Assembly: GCF_963921235.1 (NCBI RefSeq)
Contig: NC_086097.1
Coordinates: 62,808,001 to 62,872,000, forward strand
Length of the DNA stretch: 64,000 nt
DNA from: Mobula hypostoma
Lineage: Eukaryota
Direction of reading: 5' to 3'
Below are positions 2,942-60,993 of the stretch, in pieces (within the stretch, counting starts at the first letter, position 1; every line of letters starts with the position of its first letter). The notes under the pieces are model-generated. The model had not been told where the DNA came from, did not search any database, and saw only the letters and a list, made by a program, of their open reading frames with translations. Made by a program: the position numbers and the translations under genes.

Positions 2942-4458
2942 TGTAACAGAATCAGTTGGCAATGCTTCTCCCACTAACTTTGACCCTTTGTCTGGTTAGT
3001 CACTCCTCCTCGCTCTGTCCCTGGTCTAGTTTCCCCAGTAGTTCACACACTTTGCCCTCCCATTCTGCAGTTCTTGTGAGTTCAGCATTTATAAACCCCA
3101 ACAATAAAACAATTGCTAGCTTGGCTAATCAAAACAATCCCTTCAAAACATGCTCTACTGGTTTATAACTCATAAAAAATAAAGATTCTAGACACAGACA
3201 TTCCAAACTGTTTCATTTATTTTCACTCACACCGTTACATTGGTTTGTAGACTGCAGAACAGCCCCAAAAGACCCAAGGACAGCTTGGGGCGTCCTAAAA
3301 TAACGCCTGGGTTAGTGGGCAGGCGCAACACACTCTACGCAGGCAACACCACTGGGGGGCATTATACTTTTATATTCATCTGAACATGCAGACACTGATT
3401 TAGACCATAACCATAAGACAAAGGAGCAGAAGTTGGCCATTCGGCCCATCGAGTCTGCTCCGCCATTTTATCATGAGCTGATCCATTCTCCCATTTAGTC
3501 CCACTCCCCTGCCTTCTCACCATAACCTTTGATGCCCTGGCTACTCAGATACCTATCAATCTCTGCCTTAAATACACCCAATGACTTGGCCTCCACTGCT
3601 ACCCGTGGCAACAAATTCCATAGATTCACCACCCTCTGACTAAAAAAATTTCTTTGCATTTCTGTTCTGAATGGGCGCCCTTCAATCCTTAAGTCATGCC
3701 CTCTCATACTAGACTCCCCCATTATGGGAAACAATTTTGCCACATCCACTCTGTTCATGCCTTTCAACATTCGAAATGTTTCTATGAGGTCTCCCTTCAT
3801 TCTTCTAAACTCCAAGGAATACAGTCCAAGAGCGGACAAACGTTCCTCATATGTTAACCCTCTCATTCCCAGAATCATTCTCGTGAATCTTCTCTGTACC
3901 CTCTCCAACGTCAGCACATCTTTTCTTAAATAAGGAAACCAAAACTGCCCACAGTACTCCAAGTGAGGTCTCACCAGTGCCTTATAGAGCCTCAACATCA
4001 CATCCCTGCTCCTATACTCTATTCCTCTAGAAATGAATGTCAACATTGCATTCCCCTTCTTCACTACCGACTCAACCACGAGGTTAACTTTAGGGGCATC
4101 CCGCACGATGACTCCCAAGTCCCGCTGCATCTCCGACCTTTGAATCCTTTCCCCATTTCAATAATAGTCTGCCCATTTATTTTTTCTGCCAAAATGCATA
4201 ACCACATACTTTCCAACATTGTACTTCATTTGCCACTTCTCTGCCCATTCTTCCAATCTATCCAAGTCTCTCTGCAGATTCTCTGTTTTCTCAGCACTAC
4301 CGGCCCCTCCACCTATCTTCGTATCGTCAGCAAACTTAGCAAACTTAGATTTATGGGTATAACTAAGGTATTTGTTGTGGAATAAAACTGTAGGATGTTA
4401 GAATCCTTTTTAAAATGTTCCACTTCTGCATCTGACATAATTGCTACGTCTGGTCACA
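2942..4458 (-). repeat. Complete LTR (minus strand, TGTGAC...GTTACA, ~570 bp after removing the CR1 insert)
   Basis: Minus strand reads GGGGGTGAGGGGGAATCA-TGTGACC at 4458, i.e. a polypurine tract immediately before a TG LTR start, and ends ...TGTTACA at 2942. Confidence 0.7.
3403..4347 (-). mobile_element. CR1-type LINE, 5'-truncated, young; inserted in the left LTR with 6-bp TSD GATTTA
   Basis: ORF 3495-4130 (RLYKALVRPHLEYCGQFW...FFSQRVVNLWN). GATTTA at 3397-3402 and 4348-4353. The LTR alignment to the right arm is continuous once the insert is removed. Confidence 0.95.
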
Positions 4459-7412: not shown

Positions 7413-10117
7413 AAAGGCAAAAATAACAATAGCTTTGAGGATTAACCATTGCAGATACAAGTATGAGCAATCTTACGTGGAACACGTGAGGAGTGGATCG
7501 GGACTATGAGGAACACATAGACTCCTTTGACTGGGTATTACCTTTTCTATTCTTCGACTATTCAGGAGAGTTAGGGAAACATAGTGTGTGCATGCAGGTA
7601 CTTAGTGTCTGAATTCACATACTTATTAGTTTAGACAATAAGGTACTTGTCGGTAATCTCGGATTCTCTCTGTACCTTTCTGATCATTATTACTAAGGCC
7701 TGATCTTTGTAACAGTAATATGTTGTATTAACCATGGTACCAACTTTACTTTGATGTTGACATTTGACATTTAAGCCAATGGCACTGCTGTCCATCATTG
7801 TGATTCAAAGTCAGTACCATGAACTTGAAATGCTTTGTCTGATATTTATAGGTTTTTATACTTTGTCACTTCATAACCTGATCCAGGTATGTTTAAATGG
7901 ACATGTCTCTTCTTGAGATGATTTTCATTCTTGAGAAATTAAACTGAACATCAAGACTAGATTGATCAAGAGTAGATCAAAGCCTGAGTAGTAGCAGAAT
8001 TCATCTGAAACTCTATTCAGTGATGATTTTCAGTGACTAAGGATTATTGGCCAAATTTTTCCTGGCATTTGATTCAAGCTGAAATTTCCCCAGGCTTCAG
8101 AGTTTCATTAAAAATACATCTATTACAAATCTTATTTTAGATGTAGTTTTGGAGGAAGTTTTTGTTTAAAGCTGCAGTTTGAATTTATCCCTCTTGGAAA
8201 GTGCCCTTCCTGAATCCTCTTTAAAGGACTGTAAGGTTCTCTAAGTGATTTGCATGGAGGAAATACTGAATGAAGTGCAACTTGATACAGTAAAAAAATC
8301 AGCATTGTTACTCGGCCATCTTTTACACTCTGAACATAAAGTTAGTAACAAAAGCTAGGCAGTGGAAGTTAGAAATAGCTCCAATATTGTGCTGGTCAAC
8401 CTGAAATATGCCTTTTCATTGCAGGAGAATTATAAATGATGAATATAGGCTTCCCTGTGTCACCTAAAAAATAATCCCCGAGTCACATTTTCACCAAGCA
8501 AGCAGACCAAATTCTGCAAAGAAAGAAAGTTGAGCAACTTTGGATTTTATAGCAATAATTTTGCATTGTACTGGAATGCATGCAATTTGAAGATGACACT
8601 CATTCAACTGGGTTCAGTATTGGTTTCCATTTATTTTCCTGAAGCGTTTTCTCCACCATATTTGATTTCACCTTCTCAGCATAGCCTTCTATTCGCTTTT
8701 CAACTACTTGTTTTCTCAGCTGGTCCTCAAGTGCACCGTTGCTGCTGGTCTCATTCACTCCTTGTGATGCTCCACGTCACATTCTGACTGCAGTTACACC
8801 ATCAGCTACAGTGACAAGCAGAATCAGCAAATGCCCCCCCTCCAGACTTGCCTCAACTTGGCATCTTATCAATATCCCCACCTGAGACCTACCCATCAGC
8901 AAGAACTGGTGTCCCTGGGGATCAATGAGCCATAAGCAGTATCAAGAGACATGCTCAACAAATCACATGAAAAATCTCAACGTCTGATTCATTTCACAGT
9001 ATATTTCAGCTAAGTAGCTTATTAGACAATGGAACAGCATTAAGCTAATTGCCAAAACTAATAATATACTGATTGTACAGTTTCTACTGGGGGAGACAGG
9101 ATCAGTATGGAAGGTACAGAAAAGGCACCCTTGCTTTAATTGATATCATCAGAAAAGCAAAACATTTCTTACTGCAAAGCAAGTAGGAAACTTATTCATT
9201 CCATTTCACCTTGACCTGAACTGCATACATCTCAATATGCTTGGATTAAGCTTATGTTTTTTTTAAAGTTTCAAAACATTGTTGGAATTGATAATCACTG
9301 CAGCCAAACCTGTCGGAAACATAAATTCAGAGAACTAATACTACCTACCCATTGCATCCAGCTTAGGCACAGCAACAAAATATTTCAAACTCAAAAATGG
9401 CAAATGATCAACACCTATTATCCTCTCTAGTGCTGATGTACTTGTCATTAGTTTCAGTATGTGGTTCGATTGAATAAGATTTGGAACTTGAGCAGCAAGC
9501 TCTTCATTTTAATTTGCACCATTAAACTAATCTTATTAATCTAGTTTTAAATTATGACTGGCAAAACCTGTACATGAATAAATCCTTTTGAAATTAGCTC
9601 CAACGTTAGAATGAGATATGGACAATCAAATCAGGGAAGCATAACAAATTCAATGAATGTTCCAGAAAACTCATGTAACATATGCTGATTAGTCAGCATA
9701 GCATAAAGTATATAATAAAATATAATTAATTTTTTCATACTGTTGCAAAATCTGTTGGGATCCATGTTTAAAGCAATTGTCGTTTAAATTCTTTTTACTT
9801 CACTTCCAAAGCTTGAATGAAATACAGATAAGAAAGATGCAAATGCATGCCCATACCCTGGATTTTATTCATATTATAAATAGGCCTAATAGTTCAACTG
9901 TTACAAAGTTAAATTACATAATTCATATTTTCATTTTTGCATGAAAATAGAAAAGCCAAACTGCAGGAGCACTAGTAAATTCTACTTATAAAAACAGTTA
10001 CAGGACACAAGGACTTTGAAGGACATTCATTGCAACTCTAACAGTAACAAACTCTGACTGCATTGGTGCTTACATCACATGTACACACATCTCTGAACTA
10101 CATACAAGCACGTCACA

Positions 10118-10345
10118 AACACAATATATTCTGCAGATGCTGGACATCCAAAGCAACACATGAAATGCTGGAGGAATTCAGCAGGTCAGGCAGTATCTAT
10201 GAAGAACAATAAATAGCTGACGTTTTGGGCTGACTTCCTTCATTCAGTCCTGATGAAGGGTCTTGACCTGAAACGTTGATTGTCTATTCCCCTACATAGA
10301 CGCTGCCTGACCTGCTGAGTTTTGCCAGCATTTTGTGTGTTGTTG
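10118..10345. mobile_element. Penelope-derived palindromic mini-element (two inverted pLTR ends)
   Basis: 10153-10247 is an imperfect reverse complement of 10250-10343. Both arms match the 3' end of the Penelope at 14077-14177. Confidence 0.85.
10245..10282 (+). ncRNA. Minimal type I hammerhead ribozyme motif (PLE-associated)
   Basis: CAGTC-CTGATGA-AGGGTCTTGACCT-GAAAC-GTT-GATTG. Helix I CAGUC/GAUUG, intact CUGAUGA and GAAA boxes, helix II GGU/ACC, palindromic ACGU stem III, predicted NUH cleavage after 10277. Confidence 0.75.
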
Positions 10346-10814
10346 TTTCAGGTATATCACAATGCTTTCACTCTTTTGTGAAAATCTGGTAAATGCTTCA
10401 TCAGAGATCCTGTCTGTTAACTGACTTCCTTAACTAATTTCCCTCCTCTATCTGTGCTTGTCTCTAGTCTTGCAATTGCTCCTGGAACTCTACAGCCTCC
10501 AGACTTAATTCATGGATAGCTTGTGATTTTTTTTTTGTCAAAGTCAGAAATAGATTCATCCACAAACATTATATCAGTGATAATAGATATGTCTGTTTGT
10601 GGTTCTACACAGTTTTTGATCAAACTAAATGCCCTTTTTGGTCTACAGGCTATGTGACTGAGGAAGTGTGATAGAAGAAGAGATTATCACAGCATCTGCA
10701 GTAGGAAATATCTAACTGAATAACTGAATCACCAAGGCAGACAAAGTCAAGGGTGAAGTTCTGGAAGATTGGATAAGTCTAAGTGAATACTTAATGATCA
10801 GCATGAACTTGGAA

Positions 10815-13800
10815 GGTAGAAGGGCCTCTTCTCAAAGATCCTCTCTCTCACTTCTCCTTCACTGTGCTCTCTTTCACTGCTCCCCTGCTGCTCTCCAACT
10901 CTTTGACCACGTGCTTACCCAGACCCACTACTACAGCCACGTATCCTTTCTGGGAACATGTCTTCGCCACCAACTTGTACCACACGGTTTCCAGATTCGT
11001 TTTCAAGCTTCTCAATTTGGATCCTCTGAGGACCCCAGGTACTGTTTCTCCACCTGCTTCTCCCACTGCGTTCTACGCACCACACTTTCCGCCATGAAGT
11101 GGTACCTGGTGTCCCTGTCACAGTCACTTCCACAACTCCGGGATTCTCTCTTTGCCTGTAATGGACCTGTACACTAATTTATGCTCCGCCGGATCCACAC
11201 TTTCAATTGCCGGTTCTTTGACTTTCTCACGTCCTGCAAAGATTTGAAGATCACCTGTCCAGAGACACAGAACCTGCTGACTCCTACACCGGCAGGCTCA
11301 GACGTCTCCAGACCGCAATCCCTGCTGCTGATCTCAATGGCTCTAACAATCCTGAACAGACTCAAATCCCGGACTCCACAGCCATCAACGCGGGTTCCAA
11401 TGACCTCGGACACCTCCAAAGTGCCGATTGCACAACCTCCAACTCCGACTCCAGTCTTGACCTTCAGATGGGGTCTTTACACGCTGCCACTGGCACCCCC
11501 ATCTCCCCTTCCCCCACCGCCACTCCACAATCCTATCTCTCTCAGGTCCCACCATCACCACCCGGGTCCTCGGAAACTCTATCTTCCTCTCACCCCACCA
11601 TCCCTGAACACTCCAAACCTCCCTGCTCCTCAGACACCACCAACCCCATTCCCCCCTCTGATTGCAGCTCTCGTCCATGCTGGGTTTCCACCATTCCCTC
11701 TGACCTTCCCCTCTCTGAGACAGAACGTTCTGTCCTCAGTAAGGGCCTCACTATTGTTCTCCTGCCCACACCTCAGTGAGTTCCACTGAGATCTTCTTCC
11801 ACCACCTCCGTCTCTGAGTCTATTTCTTTGGCAAGGACTCCCCACCCTGCACCAATCACCCTTTCTCCCATCTTCAACCCTCCTCCTCTTCCTGGACAAT
11901 CTACCCTGGCCTTATGCCTGCTCTGGACCTTTTCATTGCTGACTGCCAATGGGACATTTACCATCTGGGCATCCTCTCTCCAGTTCCAACCTGACTCCTT
12001 CTGAACGCTCAGCTCTCCTCTCCCTTCGCACCAATCTTAACCTCACCCTCAAACCCACAGGTAGGGGAGGTGCTGTACTAGTCTGGCGTACTGACCTTCT
12101 CCTTGCTGAGGCCCAACACCAACTCTCAGACACCTCCTCTTACCCCTCAAGCAGGACCCCACTAAGAATCACCAGGCCATTGTCTCCCACAACATCACCA
12201 ATCTCACTGACCCTGGGGATCTCCCATCCACTGCCACCAACCTCATAGTTCCCACACCTGCCCCTCCTGTTTGTACCACCTACCCAAAACCCACAAACCT
12301 GCTTGTCCAGGTAGACCCATTGTTTCAGCTTGTTCCTGCCCCACTGAACTCATATCGGCATACCTCAACTCAGTTTTATCCCCCCCGACCCCGGTTCAGT
12401 CCCTTCCCACCTACATCTGTGACAGCTCATTTTCAAGGATTTCAGGCTCTTTGGCCCCCATCATCTTGTTTCTACTATGGGTGTCCAGTCCCTATACACC
12501 TCCAAACTCCACCAGGAAGGCCTCAAAGCTCTCCATTTCTTTCTGGACACAAACCAATTCCCCTCCTCCACTGAGCAGAACGTTCTCGCTCTAAATAAAT
12601 TCTCCTTTGGGTCCTCCCACTTCCTTCAAACAAAAGGGGTAGCCATGGGAACTCGCATGGCTCCCAGCTATGCCTGTCTGTTTGTTGGCTACGTGGAACG
12701 GTTTATGTTGCAAGACTGCATTGGTGACCATTCTGCTCTTTTCCTATCCTACATTGATGACTGCATTGGTGCTCTTTCCTGCACCCATGCTGAGCTTGTC
12801 GATTTCATCCACTTTGCCTCCAACTTCCACCCAGCCCTCAAATTCACCTGGTCCATTTTTGACACTTCCCTTCCTTTTCTAGATCTCACTGTCTCTATTT
12901 CCGGAGACAGCTTATCCACCACTAGGTATTATGAACCAACAGATTCTCACAGCTACCTGGACCATACCACATCCCACCCTGCTACTTGTAAAAACACCAT
13001 CCTCCTCTCTCATTTCCTCCATCTCTGCTGCATCTGCTCTCAGGGTGAAGTTTTTCATTCTAGAATGAAGGAGATGTCCTCCTTTTTCAAAGAGGCTTCC
13101 CTGCCTCCACCATCAGCGCTGCCCTCAACTGCATCTCTTTCATTTCACACACGTCTGCTCTTACCCCATCCTCCCTCCACGTTACCGGGGATAGGGTTCC
13201 TCTTGTCCTCACCTCCCACCCCACCAGCCTCGGCGTCCAGCACATAATTTTCCAAAACTTCCGCCACCTCCAACTGGATCCCACCACCAAACATGTCTTT
13301 CCCTCCCCAACCCTCACGTTCTCCTTTCCGCAGGGATCGGTTCCTATGCGACTCCCTTGCCCATTCATCACTCTCCACTGATTTCCCTCTTGGCACTTAT
13401 CCTTGCAAGCAGAACAAGAGCTTCTCCTGCCCCGACATCTCCTCCCTCACTAGGATTTAGGGTCAGAAACAGTCCTTCCAGGTGAGGTGGCACTTCACCT
13501 GTGAACCTGTTGTGGCCATTTACTGTGTTCAGTGCTCCTGTTGTGGCCTCTTGTATATAGGTGAGACCCGACGCAGATTGGGACTCCGCTTCACCGAGCA
13601 TCTGCGCTCCATCCGCCGGAGCAAGTGAGATCTCCTAGTGGTCACCCATTTTAATTCCACTTCCCATGTCCCATTCCCATTCCGATATGTCTATCCATGG
13701 CCTCCTCCACTGTCGGGACAAGGTCACATTTAGGTTGGAGGAACAACACCTTATATTCCGTTTGGATGGCATCCCACCTGATGGCATGGACATCAATTTC

Positions 13801-14177
13801 TCAAACTTCCAGTGATGCCTCCACCCACCCCCCACCCCTTCATTTCCCATCCCCTTGTCCCTCTCTCATGTTATGTCCTTGCCTGCCCATTGCCTCCCTC
13901 TGGTGCTCCTTCCCTGCGCCCCCCCTTTCTTCTTTCTTCCATGGCCTTCTGTCTCTTTTACCAATCAACTTCCTAGCTTTTTGCTTCATCCTTCCCCCTC
14001 CAAGTCTCACCTATCACCTGTCGTTTCTCTCTCCCCTCCCCCCATCTTTCAAATCTACTCCTCAGCGTTTTTTCTACAGACCTGCCGAAGGGTTTCAGCA
14101 CAAAAGGTTGACTGTACTTTATTCAATAGGTGCTGCCTGACCTGCTGAGTTCCTACAGCATTTTGTGTGTATTGCTC
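10815..14177 (+). mobile_element. Near full-length Penelope-like element, Neptune-type (RT + Cys-rich linker + GIY-YIG endonuclease), frameshifted
   Basis: N-terminal HVSFLGTCLRHQLVPHGF. RT motifs GRPIVS, VQSLYT, QTKGVAMGTRMAPSYA, YIDD. Linker GTYPCK..SCP at ~13392. GIY-YIG AIYCVQCSCCGLLYIGETRRRL at ~13515-13580. Decayed hammerhead at 14077-14114. Confidence 0.95.
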
Positions 14178-14529
14178 CTATTTTTAAGTCTTATACTTGT
14201 TCACTAATTTGGTGACTTTAACTCTCTTAAATAAAACTGATTCCCTCTTCCTAACATGTTGCATTTTCTGCCACTCTACTCTTCCTTCTCAGTTACACTA
14301 TTCCTACTCAATCTTGTATGAGGACAACAGCTCTATTAGAAGGCAAAAAATAAGATATAGAACAGAACAGTATTTAATCTATCATCAGTTCCACAAAATA
14401 CTAGGATCACTCTTGAAACATGGTTCTTCAATGTTGATTTAACACACAAACAGGTCTCTCCAATGCCCTCTGGACGAAGGCTAATACAAAGGAATGAATG
14501 GATACTTGTTGCCACTATATCACAGGTGG

Positions 14530-23681: not shown

Positions 23682-24419
23682 TGATATCCATGGTTATTTA
23701 ATTCCCAATCCTCTCCACCCTGCAACCACTTCTCTGTAATGGCCACTAAGTCATACTTCTTTGTACTGATTTGAGCCACAAGTTCACTGACCTTGTTTCA
23801 AATAATACAGACATTCAGATGAAGTCCCCTTATACTCATTGTGCTTTTAAAATCTTGTACTCTTTTGTACTTGGCTTTTCTTCACTGCACTCTTCCTTTT
23901 TTCTTTTTTATCTTTTGTTTTTCTTTAGCCTCATCTACACTCTTCTTTTTTACTTTATCCATACTTCTCCAATCTGTTGAAGCCACCCCCTACTATTTAG
24001 TTTAAAGCCCCATCCACAGCCCTAGTTATGCAATTCACGAGGATCCAGGTCCCCATCACGGTTCAGGTGGAGACCGTGCCATTGTTACAGCTCCCTCCTT
24101 CCTCAATACTGGTACCAATTTCCCAAGAATTCAAACCCACTTCTCCCGCACCAATCCTTGAGCCACGAATTTAGCTCTCTAATCATCTTGACCCTATGCC
24201 AATTTGCACATGGCACATGGGAAGCAAGAGATGAAATTCAGCCCCTTGTGCCTGTCGCATTATTCAATAATATTGTGGCTGAGGTATTGCATTCTGACAT
24301 TTTACTGCACTGAACCTACATCCTTTAATTCCCTAAATATATCTAAAATTCTATCAGTGTAAAGGGAATTATAGAATATGGGTTTAGTGCAGTAATACAC
24401 TTGGCTACAGATCTTCATT

Positions 24420-44869: not shown

Positions 44870-45530
44870 TTATTCTCTCCATTCCTCCTCCTTCATTATA
44901 AATTAATGCATGCTTCTTTGCCAGCTTTGCCAAGTTCATCAACATGAAGCATTAACCAACACTGCCCCCTTCTCTTCTAGCTGTAATGAATGGTCTCAGC
45001 CCAAAACATTGACTATTTATCCCCCCTCCCCCAGATGCTACCTGACCAGCTTAACTCCTCCAGCATTTTGTGTCTTTCAAGATTTCCAACATCTACAGAA
45101 TCTCTCTAGTGGTGATTTACCAGCATTTTCTAGTTTTTTTCCAGTTCTCTTGATTGAAACTAGATTGGGGGGCTCATCTACAACTCATACAATCCAATGG
45201 AATTTCAATCCAAGCAGAGGAAATTAAAATCCTTCCTAAATAATGAAAAATCACTTCAGACCAGTTACAGTTAGATTTGCAACAAATGAGAGTCTGGATA
45301 TTCTGGGAATATATCCTCATTGAATTATCTTATTACACTGCAAAATATTCAAATTCAAGAGAAACAACCTACTGGAAGAACTTAGCAGGTCAAGTAGCTT
45401 CTATGAGGGGAAAGAAATAGTTAGTGTTTAGGGTCAACCTCTGCTTCAGGATCACAGTTGCTCCTCAGCCTAGTGAGATCCTCCAGCAGATTACATGTTG
45501 TTCCATCTCCAGCATCTGCAATCTCATGTG
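44870..45530. mobile_element. Two decayed Penelope pLTR-end fragments (one + end at ~44870-45110, one palindromic at ~45360-45530)
   Basis: Similarity to the 'gatgctgcctgacctgctgagttcctccagcatttt' end and to the 'tttccagcatctgcagaat' extension. Confidence 0.6.
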
Positions 45531-45624
45531 TTCACATGTTTAGATTCTATTTTCATCCAAAAAGTTGCATTATTATCATTCCCTATAATGATAAGCTGAC
45601 ATAATCATAAATAAATAGAATCCC

Positions 45625-46517
45625 AACATAAGAGATTCCGTAGATTTTGGAAATCCAGAGCAGCACACACAAAATAGAGAAAGGTGAGTTTCTTCCCCAT
45701 TAATCTCCCTCCTGGCACTTATCCCTGCAAATAGAACAAGTTCTTTGCCTACCTATTGACCTCCTCCCTTACCTCCATTCAGGGCCCCAAACAGTCCTTC
45801 CAGGTGAGGCAACACTTCACCTGTTAATCTATTGGGGTCTTCGACTGTATCCAGTGCTCCCAACTTGGCCTCCTCTTCATTGATGAGGTCCGTCTTAGTT
45901 TGGGAGACTGCTTTATCGACCACCTTCACTCCACCTGTAATAAGCAGGATTTCCCAGTGACCAACCATTTTAATTCCAATCCATTCCCATTCTGACATGT
46001 TGGTCTATAGCTCCCTCTACTGCCACAATAAGGCCACTCTCAGACTGCAAAGCAACACTTCATATTCCATCTGGATAGCCTCCAACATGATGGCATGAAC
46101 GTCGATTTCTCTAACTTTCAGTAATTTTTCCCACTCTGCTTCCCTCTTCATCCATTCTCCACTCTGGCTGCCCTCTCACCTCTCCTCTTCCCCTCACCTG
46201 CTAATCACATCGCCCTAGTGCCCTTCCTCCTTCCCTTTCTTCCATGGTCCACTTTCCTCTCTTATCAAAAGCCTTTTTCTACAGCCCTTTACCTTTTTCA
46301 CCTGTCACCTCTCTGCTTCCTGTTTCCTCCCCCACCCACCTGGCTTCAACCATTATCTTCTAGCTTGTACTACTTCCTTTCCCCTCACATTCTTATTCTG
46401 GCTCCTTCTCCTTTCCAGTCCTGCTGAAAGGTCTCAGCCCAGAATGTCAATTATTCATTCATTTCCATAGATGCTGCTTGCCCTGCTGAGTTCCTCCAGC
46501 ATTTTGTGCATGTTGCT
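45625..46517 (+). mobile_element. Penelope 3' part (Cys linker + GIY-YIG + pLTR) preceded by a short inverted end
   Basis: GTYPCK*NK, FQVRQHFTC; decayed hammerhead at 46416-46453; inverted tail at 45625-45675. Confidence 0.85.
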
Positions 46518-46651
46518 AAGAATCCCAGCAACTTTCTTCTTCTGGGACCTTGTACCAAATTAGACAGAACACAATTTATTCACAGAAGTTACTATGTTAG
46601 CAACCCTGCAAGATTTTTCATTTATAAAGTTAATTGCTGCAATCAACGTGG

Positions 46652-46822
46652 AGACACAAGAGATTCTACAGATGCTGGAAATGTAGAGCAACACACACAA
46701 AATGCTGGAGGAATTCAGCAGGTCCAGTCCTGCAGAAGAGTCTCGGCCCAGAATGCCGACTGTTCGTCTCCCTCCATAGATGCTGCATGATCCACTGAAT
46801 TGCTCCACCATTTTGTGCAACG
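46652..46822. mobile_element. Penelope-derived palindromic mini-element with a decayed hammerhead (46725-46762)
   Basis: CACAAAATGCTGGAGGAATTCAG ... CTGAATTGCTCCACCATTTTGTG inverted arms. Confidence 0.8.
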
Positions 46823-57280: not shown

Positions 57281-60200
57281 GAAGAACAGGACCTCAAGGG
57301 TGGCATTCTCAGGATTACTGCCAGTGCTATGTGATAGTGATGGTAAGAATTGGAGGAGATGGCAGTTGAATGCGTGGCTGAGGAGTTGGTGCAGGGAGCA
57401 GGGTTTTAGATTTTTGGATCATTGGGATCTCTTCTGGGGAAGGTGGGACCTGTACAGATTGGATGGGTTGCACCTGAACTCAAGGGGGAGCAATATCCTT
57501 GCAGGTAGGTTTGCTAGCATGGTTCGGGAGGGTTTAAACTAATTTGCAAGGGGGGTGGGACCTGGAGCGATAGAGCAGTGAAAAAAGTGCATGGAATAAA
57601 GCCAGATCTAACATATAGAGAGGCTTTGAGGAAAGAGAAGCAGAATAAACGGTGTAAAGGTAGAAAGGTAGTAAGGCAAAAGGGCTGAAATGTGTGTACC
57701 TCAAAGCAAGAAGCATCAGGAGCAAAGGTGATGAACTGAGAGCTTGGATACATACATGGAATTATGATGTAGTGGCCATCACAGAGACTTGGCTGGCACC
57801 AGGGCAGGAATGGATTCTCAATATTCCTGGATATCAGTGCTTTAAAAGGGATAGAGAGGGCGGAAAAAGGGGAGGTCAGGGATACTATTACAGCTACAGA
57901 AAGGGTAGGTAATGTAGCAGGATCCTCTTTTGAGTCAGTATGGGTGGAAGTCAGGAACAGGGAGCAGTTACTCTACTGGGGGTATTCTATAGGCCCCCTG
58001 GTAGCAGCAGAAATACAGAGATACAGAGGGGCAGATTGGGAGGCAGATTTTGGAGAGGTGCAAAAATAACAGGGTTGTTATCATGGGTGACTTTAACTTC
58101 CCTAATATTGATTGGCACCTGATTAGTTCCAAGGGTTTAGATGGGGCAGAGTTTGTTAAGTGTGTCCAGGACAGATTCCTGTCACAGTATGTGGACAGGC
58201 CAACTAGAGGGAATGCCATACTGGATCTAGTACTAGGTAATGAACCGGGTCAGGTCACAGATCTCTCAGTGGGTGAGCATCTGGGGGACAGTGACCACCG
58301 CTCCCTGGCCTATAGCATTATCATGGAAAAGGATAGAATCAGAGAGGACAGGAAAATTTTTAATTGGGGAAGGGCAAATTATGAGGCTATAAGGCTGGAA
58401 CTAGCGGGTGTGTATTGGGATGATGTTTTTGCAGGGAAATGTGCTGCGGACATGTGGTCGATGTTTAGAGATCTCTTGCAGGATGTTAGGGATAAAATTG
58501 TCCCGGTGAGGAAGGTAAAGAATGGTAGGGTGAAGGAACCATGGGTGACAAGTGAGGTGAAAAATCTAGTCAGGTGGAAGAAGGCAGCATACATGAGGTT
58601 TAGGAAACAAGGATCAGATGGGTCTATTGAGAAATATAGGGAAGCAAGAAAGGAGCTTAAGAAGGGGCTGAGAAGAGCAAGAAGGGGGCATGAGAAGGCC
58701 TTGGCGAGTAGGATAAAGGAAAACCCCAAGGCATTCTTCAATTATGTGAAGAACAAAAGGGTGACAGGAGTGAAGGTAGGACTGATTAGAGATAAAGGTT
58801 GGAAGATGTGCCTGGAGGCTGTGGAAGTGAGCGAGGTCCTCAATGAATACTTCTGTTCGGTATTCACCAATGAGAGGGAACTTGGTGATGGTGAGGACAA
58901 TGTGAGTGAGGTTGATGTTCTGGAGCATGTTGATATTAAGGGAGAGAAGGTGTTGGAGTTGTTAAAACACATTAGGACAGATAAGTCCCCGGGGCCTGAC
59001 GGAATATTCCCCAGGCTGCTCCATGAGGCAAGGGAAGAGATTGCTGAGCCTCTGGCTAGGATCTTTATGTCCTCGTTGTCCACGGGAATGGTACCGGAGG
59101 ATTGGAGGGAGGTGAATTATAGACCAGTGAGCCTTAAGTCTGTGGTGAGAAAGCTGTTGGAAAAGATTCTTAGAGATAGGATCTATAGGCATTTAGAGAA
59201 TCATGGTCTGATCAGGGACAGTCAGCATGGCTTTGTGAAGGGTAGATCATATCTAACAAGCCTGATAGAGTTCTTTGAGGAGGTGACCAGACATATAGAT
59301 GAGGGTAGTGCAGTGGATGTGATCTATATGGATTTTAGTAAGGCATTTGACAAGATTCCACACGGCAGGCCTATTCAGAAAGTCAGAAGGCATGGGATCC
59401 AGGGAAGTTTGGCCAGGTGGATTCAGAATTGGCTTGCCTGCGGAAGGCAGAGGGTCGTGGTGGAGGGAGTGCATTCAGATCGGAGGATTGTGACTAGTGG
59501 TGTCCCACAAGCATCTGGTCTGGGACCTCTACTTTTCGTGATTTTTATTAAGAACCTGGATGTGGGGGTAGAGGGGTGGGTTGGCAAGTTTGCAGACGAC
59601 ACAGAGGTTGGTGGTGTTGTAGATAATGTAGAGGATTGTCAAAGATTGCAGAGAGACATTGATAGGATGCAGAAGTGGGCTGAGAAGTGGCAGATGGAGT
59701 TCAAATCGGAGAAGTGTGAGGTGGTACACTTTGGAAGGACAAACTCCAAGGCAGAGTACAAAGTAAATGGCAGGATACTTGGTAGTGTGGAGGAGCAGAG
59801 GGATCTGGGGGTGCATGTCCACAGATCCCTGAAAGTTGCCTCACAGGTGGATAGGGTAGTTAAGAAAGCTTATGGGGTATTAGCTTTCATAAGTCGAGGG
59901 ATAGAGTTTAAGAGTCGCAATGTAATCATGCAGCTCTATAAAACTCTGGTTAGGCTACAATTGGAGTACTGTGTCCAGTTCTGGTCGCCTCACTATAGGA
60001 AGGATGTGGAAGCATTGGAAAGGGTACAGAGGAGATTTACCAGGATGCTGCCTGGTTTAGAGAGTATGCATTATGATCAGAGATTAAGGGAGCTAGGGCT
60101 TTACTCTTTGGAGAGAAGGAGGATGAGAGGAGATATGATAGAGTTGTACAAGATAATAAGAGGAATAGATAGAGTGGATAGCCAGCGCCTCTTCCCCAGG

Positions 60201-60480
60201 GCACCGCTGCTCAATACAAGAGGACATGGCTTTAAGGTAAGGGGTGGGAAGTTCAAGGGGGACATTAGAGGAAGGTTTTTTACTCAGAGAGTGGTTGGTG
60301 CGTAGAATGTACTGCCTGAGTCAGTGGTGGAGGCAGATACACTCGTGAAGTATAAGAGACTACTAGACAGGTATATGGAGGAATTTAATGTGGGGGTTAT
60401 ACGGGAGGCAGGGTTTGAGGGTCGGCACAACATTGTGAGCCGAAGGGCCTGTAATGTGCTGTACTATTCTATTCTATTCT
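57281..60480 (+). mobile_element. CR1 LINE, 5'-truncated in ORF1, young; 5-bp TSD AGATT
   Basis: ORF1 end (LNAWLRSWC..DGLHLN), ORF2 EN-RT, (CTATT)n tail. AGATT at 57276-57280 and 60481-60485. Confidence 0.97.
58050..60305 (+). pseudogene. CR1 ORF2 (endonuclease C-half + reverse transcriptase), 751-aa open stretch; 5' frameshifts, internal deletion and premature stop
   Basis: GDFNFPNIDW, GDSDH, KSPGPDG, YMDFSKAFD, KFADD. The stop at 60303-60305 replaces the conserved W of VVGAWN. Confidence 0.9.
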
Positions 60481-60993
60481 AGATTCTGCAGATGCTGGAA
60501 ACCCAGAAGAACAAAATATTGGAGGAACTCTGCAGATCAGGCAGCATCTATGAAGAAGAATAAACAGTTGATGTTTTGGGCTGAAACTTTTCATCAGGAT
60601 TGGAAAAGAAGGGGGAAGAAGCCAGAGTAAGAAGATGGAGGAAGGGGAAGCTGTACAAGCTGGCAAGTGATAGGTGAAATCAGGTGGGGTGGAAAATAGG
60701 TGGATGGGGGAAGGAAGGATGAAGAGAAGATGAAGGGTGATAGGTGGAAGAGGTAAAGGGTTGAATAGGAGAGGAGAGTGGAACATGGGAGAAATGGAAG
60801 GAGGAGGGGCACCAGAAGGATATGATAGGCAGGTGAGGAGACAAGGAGGCATATGAGAGGAGCCAGAATGGGGACTGCAAAAAGAGAGAAAGGGAAGAAG
60901 GAGGAAATTACCAGAAGTTAGAGAAGGAAATGATCATGCTATCAGGTTTGTGACTACAAGGACAGTATATGAAATGTTGTCCCTTCAACCTGA

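Follow-up and report, generated by a model that had tools for sequence, protein, structure and literature searches.

What is the inverted repeat at 10118-10345, a ribozyme-bearing unit that propagates or acts as RNA in its own right, or a broken product of ordinary retrotransposition? The window analysed here, i.e. the whole stretch of 64 kb in which the repeat lies, had been read from its letters in a first-pass annotation, which took the repeat for two inverted pLTR ends of a Penelope-like element (PLE) meeting back to back at a hammerhead ribozyme, and offered extreme truncation and a self-propagating mini-family as alternative origins. Our results argue that the unit, with its bounds placed at 10119-10348, is very probably an ordinary short head-to-head PLE insertion, which would have been produced from two cDNAs, each primed at a cut target strand. 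Element identity, abundance, unequal ends, single-copy flanks, junction variety and decay are all directly observed. The parts of the unit are:

10119..10243, minus strand: inverted arm, a Penelope-like pLTR 3′ end that is cut short within the hammerhead core
10244..10348, plus strand: direct arm, a pLTR that begins at the helix I 5′ edge of the hammerhead and runs to the short end without a tail
10119..10151, minus strand: tail extension of 33 nt, in the inverted arm only, aligning with the long ends of other copies
10243..10247, no strand: central junction, where the arms overlap by 2-3 nt in a by-eye reading against other copies

The description as two inverted pLTR ends was borne out, since the arms are complementary and both are 3′ ends of a PLE. 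The inverted repeat arms at 10154-10243 and 10253-10342 (90 nt each) have a complementarity of 71%, and a gapless global alignment of the arms gave 65 Watson-Crick pairs in 92 positions, with 16 G.U pairs in the plus-strand RNA, 6 A.C mismatches and 5 transversions. Folding of 10100-10360 gave -113.9 kcal/mol (z -10.3), which was equalled by none of 200 shuffles. Instead of the single dsRNA helix of ~95 bp that had been proposed, the fold has ~82 arm-to-arm pairs, with 20 and 22 bp as the longest unbroken helices. The arms are unequal, as the left one carries the 33-nt tail at 10119-10151 and the right one does not; this tail aligns with the ends of 44967-45111, 45448-45532, 45626-45676, 46654-46727 and 60478-60614.

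Other inverted repeats occur in the window. An unrelated AT-rich hairpin of ~95 nt at 24301-24396, which three Rfam microRNA models match far under their gathering scores, could be a small fold-back transposon remnant. Nested inverted repeats at 2966-3279/4971-5283 and 4349-4411/4785-4847 (86-90% complementary) enclose an RT frame at 3495-4157 that is LINE-like, a label given by eye.

To which element do the arms belong? Local search found the same pLTR sequence in 11 pieces within the 64-kb window, and it terminates three bodies with RT and GIY-YIG remnants, at 10875-14182 (plus strand), 45677-46517 (plus strand) and ~63000-60478 (minus strand). Because these three RT/GIY-YIG bodies share the terminal sequence, the arms of the palindrome can be assigned to a Penelope-like element as its pLTR ends. 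With an nhmmer profile made from the window's 11 arms, own arm included, the left arm was matched at 10252-10118 on the minus strand (E 6e-34) and the right arm at 10240-10346 (E 2e-28). Exact-pattern scans for a 24-nt pLTR motif matched nothing in viral or in metagenome contigs (0 each). The first of the three bodies is:

10875..14182, plus strand: decayed, nearly full-length Penelope-like body with RT, linker cysteine motif, GIY-YIG and the same pLTR end

In this body Pfam detected RVT_1 (E 0.0065) and GIY-YIG (E 0.0028), both under the gathering score. By tblastn, a homologue with RT and GIY-YIG (P0012) aligned over 11970-13667 (E 2.5e-80), and residues 25-149 of another (P0023) matched 10884-11249. 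The RT stretch has 26 longer homologues, the best of which, from bamboo shark, shows 56% identity; a C-x4-C-x2-C motif precedes the GIY-YIG region in 17 of the 26, and partial remnants of it are present in the window's bodies. Such a linker cysteine motif is common to the Neptune and Nematis clades (PMC8557442), and it points to one of these two for the present element. The parent of the palindrome is an endonuclease-bearing PLE, probably of Neptune type. The body lies 530 bp downstream of the palindrome in the same sense, and at least its left edge is found in relatives. On its minus strand, 11693-11750 gave a weak Rfam match to an antizyme frameshift element (E 0.55), probably by chance. The third PLE end, near 60478, adjoins a stop-free frame of 766 codons at 58005-60305 that resembles, by eye, ORF2 of a CR1-type LINE.

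Copy number and flanks were assessed with contigs of four sequencing runs from four organisms, aligned to 9700-11100 at 80% likeness; one of the runs, X1, is possibly the window's own source and does not count as independent. Between 35,237 and 46,082 contigs per run were placed on this 1.4-kb stretch, and the element took up the bulk of the depth. In the four runs, summed depth was 1e5-2e6 over 10123-10357 versus 5-40 over 10358-10874, and due to this contrast we read the element as very abundant and the 530-bp spacer before the next body as single-copy. In organisms B and G (both outer arms) and C (right arm), contigs anchored in unique flank reach 37-57 bases into the element. Relative to the window, 8-9% of letters are changed in the right-flank contigs of C and G. 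Neither a contig across the element centre nor an empty site was seen in the four runs. Compared with the majority of the other local arms, the left arm differs at 21 of 127 positions (16.5%) and the right arm at 23 of 106 (21.7%). The unit at 10119-10348 is one stand-alone, old, dead insertion with single-copy flanks. No host exon was identified: 40 of 99 listed candidates were compared with Pfam, of which 39 had no match and one a sub-threshold match.

The outer ends of the unit, and comparable structures in the window, are as follows:

10105..10118, plus strand: probable target-site duplication, left copy, decayed, 14 bp
10349..10362, plus strand: probable target-site duplication, right copy
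45356..45532, no strand: second two-armed unit, in opposite orientation, with another junction, a broken core and the hammerhead arm on the left
46654..46822, no strand: third two-armed unit, with a shorter inverted arm, another junction and a broken core
45626..46517, plus strand: long-armed version, in which an inverted tailed arm (45626-45676) is joined to an 840-bp body

The two further units had been anticipated near 45360-45530 and 46652-46822 and are indeed present, at the bounds listed. Around 10119-10348, the sequences 10105-10118 and 10349-10362 are identical at 10 of 14 positions, all four differences being transitions, and 10 of 1473 random flank pairs did equally well. A target-site duplication is an optional feature in PLEs. 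The body of the long-armed version, with a GIY-YIG remnant and a short pLTR end, lies within a 12-bp target duplication (45617-45628 and 46519-46530, 11/12 identical), for which only one of 1473 random pairs was equally good; 45617-46530 as a whole is a textbook PLE insertion. For 45356-45532 the duplication is marginal (equalled by 25 of 1473 pairs), and none was found at 46654-46822, where 318 of 1473 were equally good. In all four two-armed structures of the window, one outer end is tailed and the other short, and the tailed arm is always the more truncated one.

The preferred route would run as follows. The element's GIY-YIG nuclease would make a staggered cut in the target, and each exposed 3′ end would prime reverse transcription within the element RNA, downstream of the hammerhead, with one start site yielding the tailed end and the other the short end. 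Both cDNAs would halt after ~100-125 nt and would then be joined together via 2-3 complementary bases, resulting in two element 3′ ends that point outward within the target duplication. Such joining of two cDNAs resembles L1 twin priming. Since the hammerhead lies ~100 nt from the priming sites, it would be a passenger in any arm that is long enough.

We infer both the two-primer route and the microhomology joining. The PLE protein of the anole has been found to cut and extend both target strands, and its RT initiates at two neighbouring internal positions, between which the tail lies (PMC11167929). Of the two origins offered in the first-pass annotation, truncation is the one that the data favour, by the one-sided tail, the probable target duplication, the long-armed analogue at 45627-46517 and the heterogeneous junctions. 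The proposal preferred by Arkhipova et al. 2013 for junctions of this kind is that an antisense template serves for self-priming (PMC3846280), and this, with a template switch, is a possible alternative route. An origin by simple fold-back, with one arm copied from its partner, was rejected, as each includes element sequence missing from the other.

One observation counts against separately primed and randomly truncated cDNAs. In all three mini-units the hammerhead arm starts at a place equivalent to 10243-10248 (10243-10248, 45446-45451 and 46723-46727), and a shared start within ~5 nt is not predicted by random truncation. This place is the 5′ edge of helix I, with a pyrimidine tract followed by CAG that resembles a splice acceptor; it is not the ribozyme cleavage site, which is 32 nt downstream. 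Among 12 of the 280 rows of joints with known in-between letters, 6 have the join at 10245-10249 and lack a long run of pyrimidines, a count that is biased as the reference's own sense sequence begins there. Microhomology as the sole cause of the start at 10245 was considered and rejected: this position has 6 partners of at least 3 nt, a local peak, but several other positions have 7.

Hence a non-random stop of the hammerhead arm at the helix I edge, by a defined 5′ end of the template or a programmed RT stop, may be entertained as a tentative and rather unlikely addition to the two-cDNA reading. If it applied, the stop would be set by splicing or by a protein-bound ribozyme fold, not by ribozyme cleavage; in Drosophila virilis, the 5′ side of helix I is where the intron of Penelope ends (PMC4209133). 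The family's many two-armed insertions would then be an in vivo record of PLE two-strand priming and of cDNA stops.

How do other origins fare against the short two-cDNA insertion? The unit might be the 5′ end of a larger insertion, consisting of inverted pLTR plus pLTR, a captured piece of host DNA (~530 bp) and the body at 10875-14182. The unit and the body are in the same sense, the ORF remnant of the body nears the N-terminus at 10884, and captured-DNA spacers adjoining a pLTR have been reported for Pen1_Av (PMC3846280). However, the duplication surrounds the small unit alone (score 9.0, 10/1473) rather than the combined block (score 2.25), the right arm terminates at the standard short end and the spacer is single-copy in the four runs, so that we regard this origin as improbable.

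An even less likely origin, in our judgement highly unlikely, is a non-autonomous hairpin mini-family whose members are transcribed and re-inserted whole by PLE protein. It draws on the presence of three such units within 64 kb, on the nearly identical beginning of the direct arm in 3/3 of them, on rotifers, where pLTRs alone suffice in cis for mobilisation (PMC3846280), and on known PLE-derived non-autonomous retrozymes, one chondrichthyan genome included (bioRxiv 2026.07.22.740005). Differing central junctions had been named beforehand as the observation that would speak against a family of palindromes, and this is what was found for the inverted arm: its inner end has a different position in each of the four local two-armed structures, and the joints of the four runs are diverse. 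Genome-wide, 572 joint rows were obtained, and among the best 15 of the 572 none exceeded 5 contigs per run (range 1-5); the table is blind to copies with the unit's own junction, and many of its joints reflect the divergence of that copy. In run X1, 440 contigs depart at 10245 into ordinary pyrimidine-rich element sequence. Moreover, the hammerhead arm of 10119-10348 is no nearer to the other units (identity 0.67 and 0.69) than to the ends of long bodies (0.69, 0.69 and 0.69), and head-to-head arms differ from the head-to-tail tandems of retrozymes. With arms decayed by 17-22%, differing inner ends and diverse joints, the idea of a self-propagating, ribozyme-bearing mini-family is not supported.

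Could the locus instead be kept as a functional RNA, either a long hairpin serving as a dsRNA signal or a hairpin-gated ribozyme on a plus-strand transcript? The ribozyme at issue is:

10245..10282, plus strand: minimal type I hammerhead motif, core intact, GUU site, helix III absent

It is located exactly as had been claimed, with CUGAUGA, GAAA, helices I/II and GUU on the plus strand. Helix I is formed by 10245-10249 and 10278-10282 with one G.U pair, the core CUGAUGA occupies 10250-10256, A10257 is bulged, helix II pairs 10258-10261 with 10266-10269, GAAA follows at 10270-10273, and a palindromic ACGU replaces helix III; the predicted cut is after 10277, at GUU. The conserved G10.1-C11.1 pair is missing, as G10258 stands opposite T10269 and gives a G.U as the first pair of helix II; because the other local copies have C, we read this as decay of the present copy. 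Both the GUU site and a G.U at 10.1-11.1 reduce hammerhead activity. The consensus features that are present are the CUGANGA core, GAAA, NUH, helices I/II and a palindromic 15.2-16.2 (core consensus as in PMC7151607). Rfam at E<=1 gave four matches in the whole window, no hammerhead among them and none at the palindrome.

Only the right arm has a complete motif. The description of two hammerhead ends back to back stands for that arm and fails for the left one, which is cut off at the junction; the minus-strand mirror, described earlier as decayed, is mutated as stated and is also truncated, lacking the 5′ strand of its helix I and the opening bases of the core. Since the left ribozyme is truncated at the junction, the unit does not hold two hammerheads.

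In folding calculations, the isolated 38-mer pairs helices I and II with P 0.67-0.91, and P falls to <0.0001 once the left arm is included. For the full unit, keeping both helices paired and the core free of pairing costs 18.4 kcal/mol; for RNAs ending at 10283-10300, as snapshots of the nascent transcript, it costs 12.0-16.3 kcal/mol, and without the left arm 1.3-2.4 kcal/mol. The left arm is made first on the plus-strand RNA, and therefore the core would be sequestered as soon as it emerged. Thus a read-through RNA, if made, would form a hairpin that buries the ribozyme core, and the alternation between hairpin and self-cleaving fold, which had been suggested earlier, finds no support in folding, with a penalty of 12-18 kcal/mol whenever the left arm is present. 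As to a dimer, no second intact core on the same strand was found in the 64-kb window, and a co-fold of two motif copies, uninformative on this point, ended in a swapped-helix duplex instead of the active dimer. In vitro, cleavage was absent with single minimal hammerheads and slight with dimers (PMC4209133), and the anole motif was cleaved only with its protein (PMC11167929).

Substitution patterns add a weak hint in the other direction. Across both arms, the changes as read on the plus strand comprise 11 C>T versus 2 G>A (p 0.022, post hoc), an excess that preserves G.U pairs in the plus-strand RNA, whereas the other copies have 27 versus 25. One non-palindromic copy, however, shows 7:2 in the same direction, and the divergence of the arms is like that of other copies. 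Polarised arm changes of 3 A>G versus 3 T>C leave no germline editing footprint. A functional RNA could further appeal to the core scan, which was passed by the copy at 10245-10282 only, one of seven local family copies covering the core, and to the presence of the unit in relatives. Set against the folding cost and the lack of an intact same-strand partner, these points leave a functional RNA very improbable.

We return to the short head-to-head insertion, and to its significance. The single locus matters little, being a decayed repeat copy whose architecture and ribozyme motif have both been published already; for the PLE insertion cycle, which is unsolved, it supplies a single case. The local rule of ends and truncation fits two separately primed cDNAs, and it ties the RT start sites seen in vitro with the anole protein to inverted structures in genomes. 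Moreover, the abundance of the family could allow junction counts that test the priming model and the possible stop at the hammerhead edge. The literature searched on Penelope structure and on repeats of sharks and rays contained neither this family in rays nor ORF-less two-armed units.

Among known systems, an inverted 5′-truncated copy with a tail of 30-40 bp at one end is an established PLE pattern (PMC8557442, PMC3846280, PMC2377424), general for PLEs according to Craig et al. 2021 (PMC8557442), and rotifer Penelopes show the same tailed and short ends with duplications of 8-10 bp (PMC3846280). The unit resembles Pen2a_Av of Adineta vaga in its inverted 5′-truncated copy beside a direct pLTR and its one-ended tail of 30-40 nt (PMC3846280), as well as in the probable short target duplication and the microhomology or short palindrome at the junction (PMC3846280, PMC8557442). 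Unlike Pen2a_Av, 10119-10348 has arms too short for coding sequence, a cartilaginous-fish host and a very high copy number. With PAc, a Poseidon element of Anolis carolinensis (Frangieh et al. 2024, PMC11167929), it shares what two RT start sites would explain, i.e. the one-sided tail. PAc belongs to another clade, whereas homologues of the 10875-14182 body carry the linker cysteine motif; the ATG in its hammerhead core opens the ORF (PMC11167929), a frame that in most local copies here meets a stop ~22 codons on; and, in the available text on PAc, no inverted products are described (PMC11167929).

Like the minimal PLE hammerheads (PMC4209133), the motif is of type I, with a 5-bp helix I, one additional unpaired base ahead of helix II, a missing helix III and a palindromic 15.2-16.2; it differs from them in the G.U at 10.1-11.1, in being overlapped by its own antisense arm and in being missed by Rfam models. 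Cervera and De la Pena describe motif pairs 100-700 bp apart on opposite strands; in their account, single motifs stem mostly from truncated PLEs (PMC4209133). Non-LTR retrozymes (Li, Clavereau and Pollet 2026, bioRxiv 10.64898/2026.07.22.740005) are likewise non-coding, derived from pLTRs and equipped with a type I hammerhead. A retrozyme identity was rejected, as those elements are head-to-tail tandems in which two or more complete motifs share a strand (bioRxiv 10.64898/2026.07.22.740005), and the present unit is head-to-head with one complete motif. In summary, the features tested identify the unit at 10119-10348, in kind and in mode of working, as a head-to-head PLE insertion that carries a minimal hammerhead.
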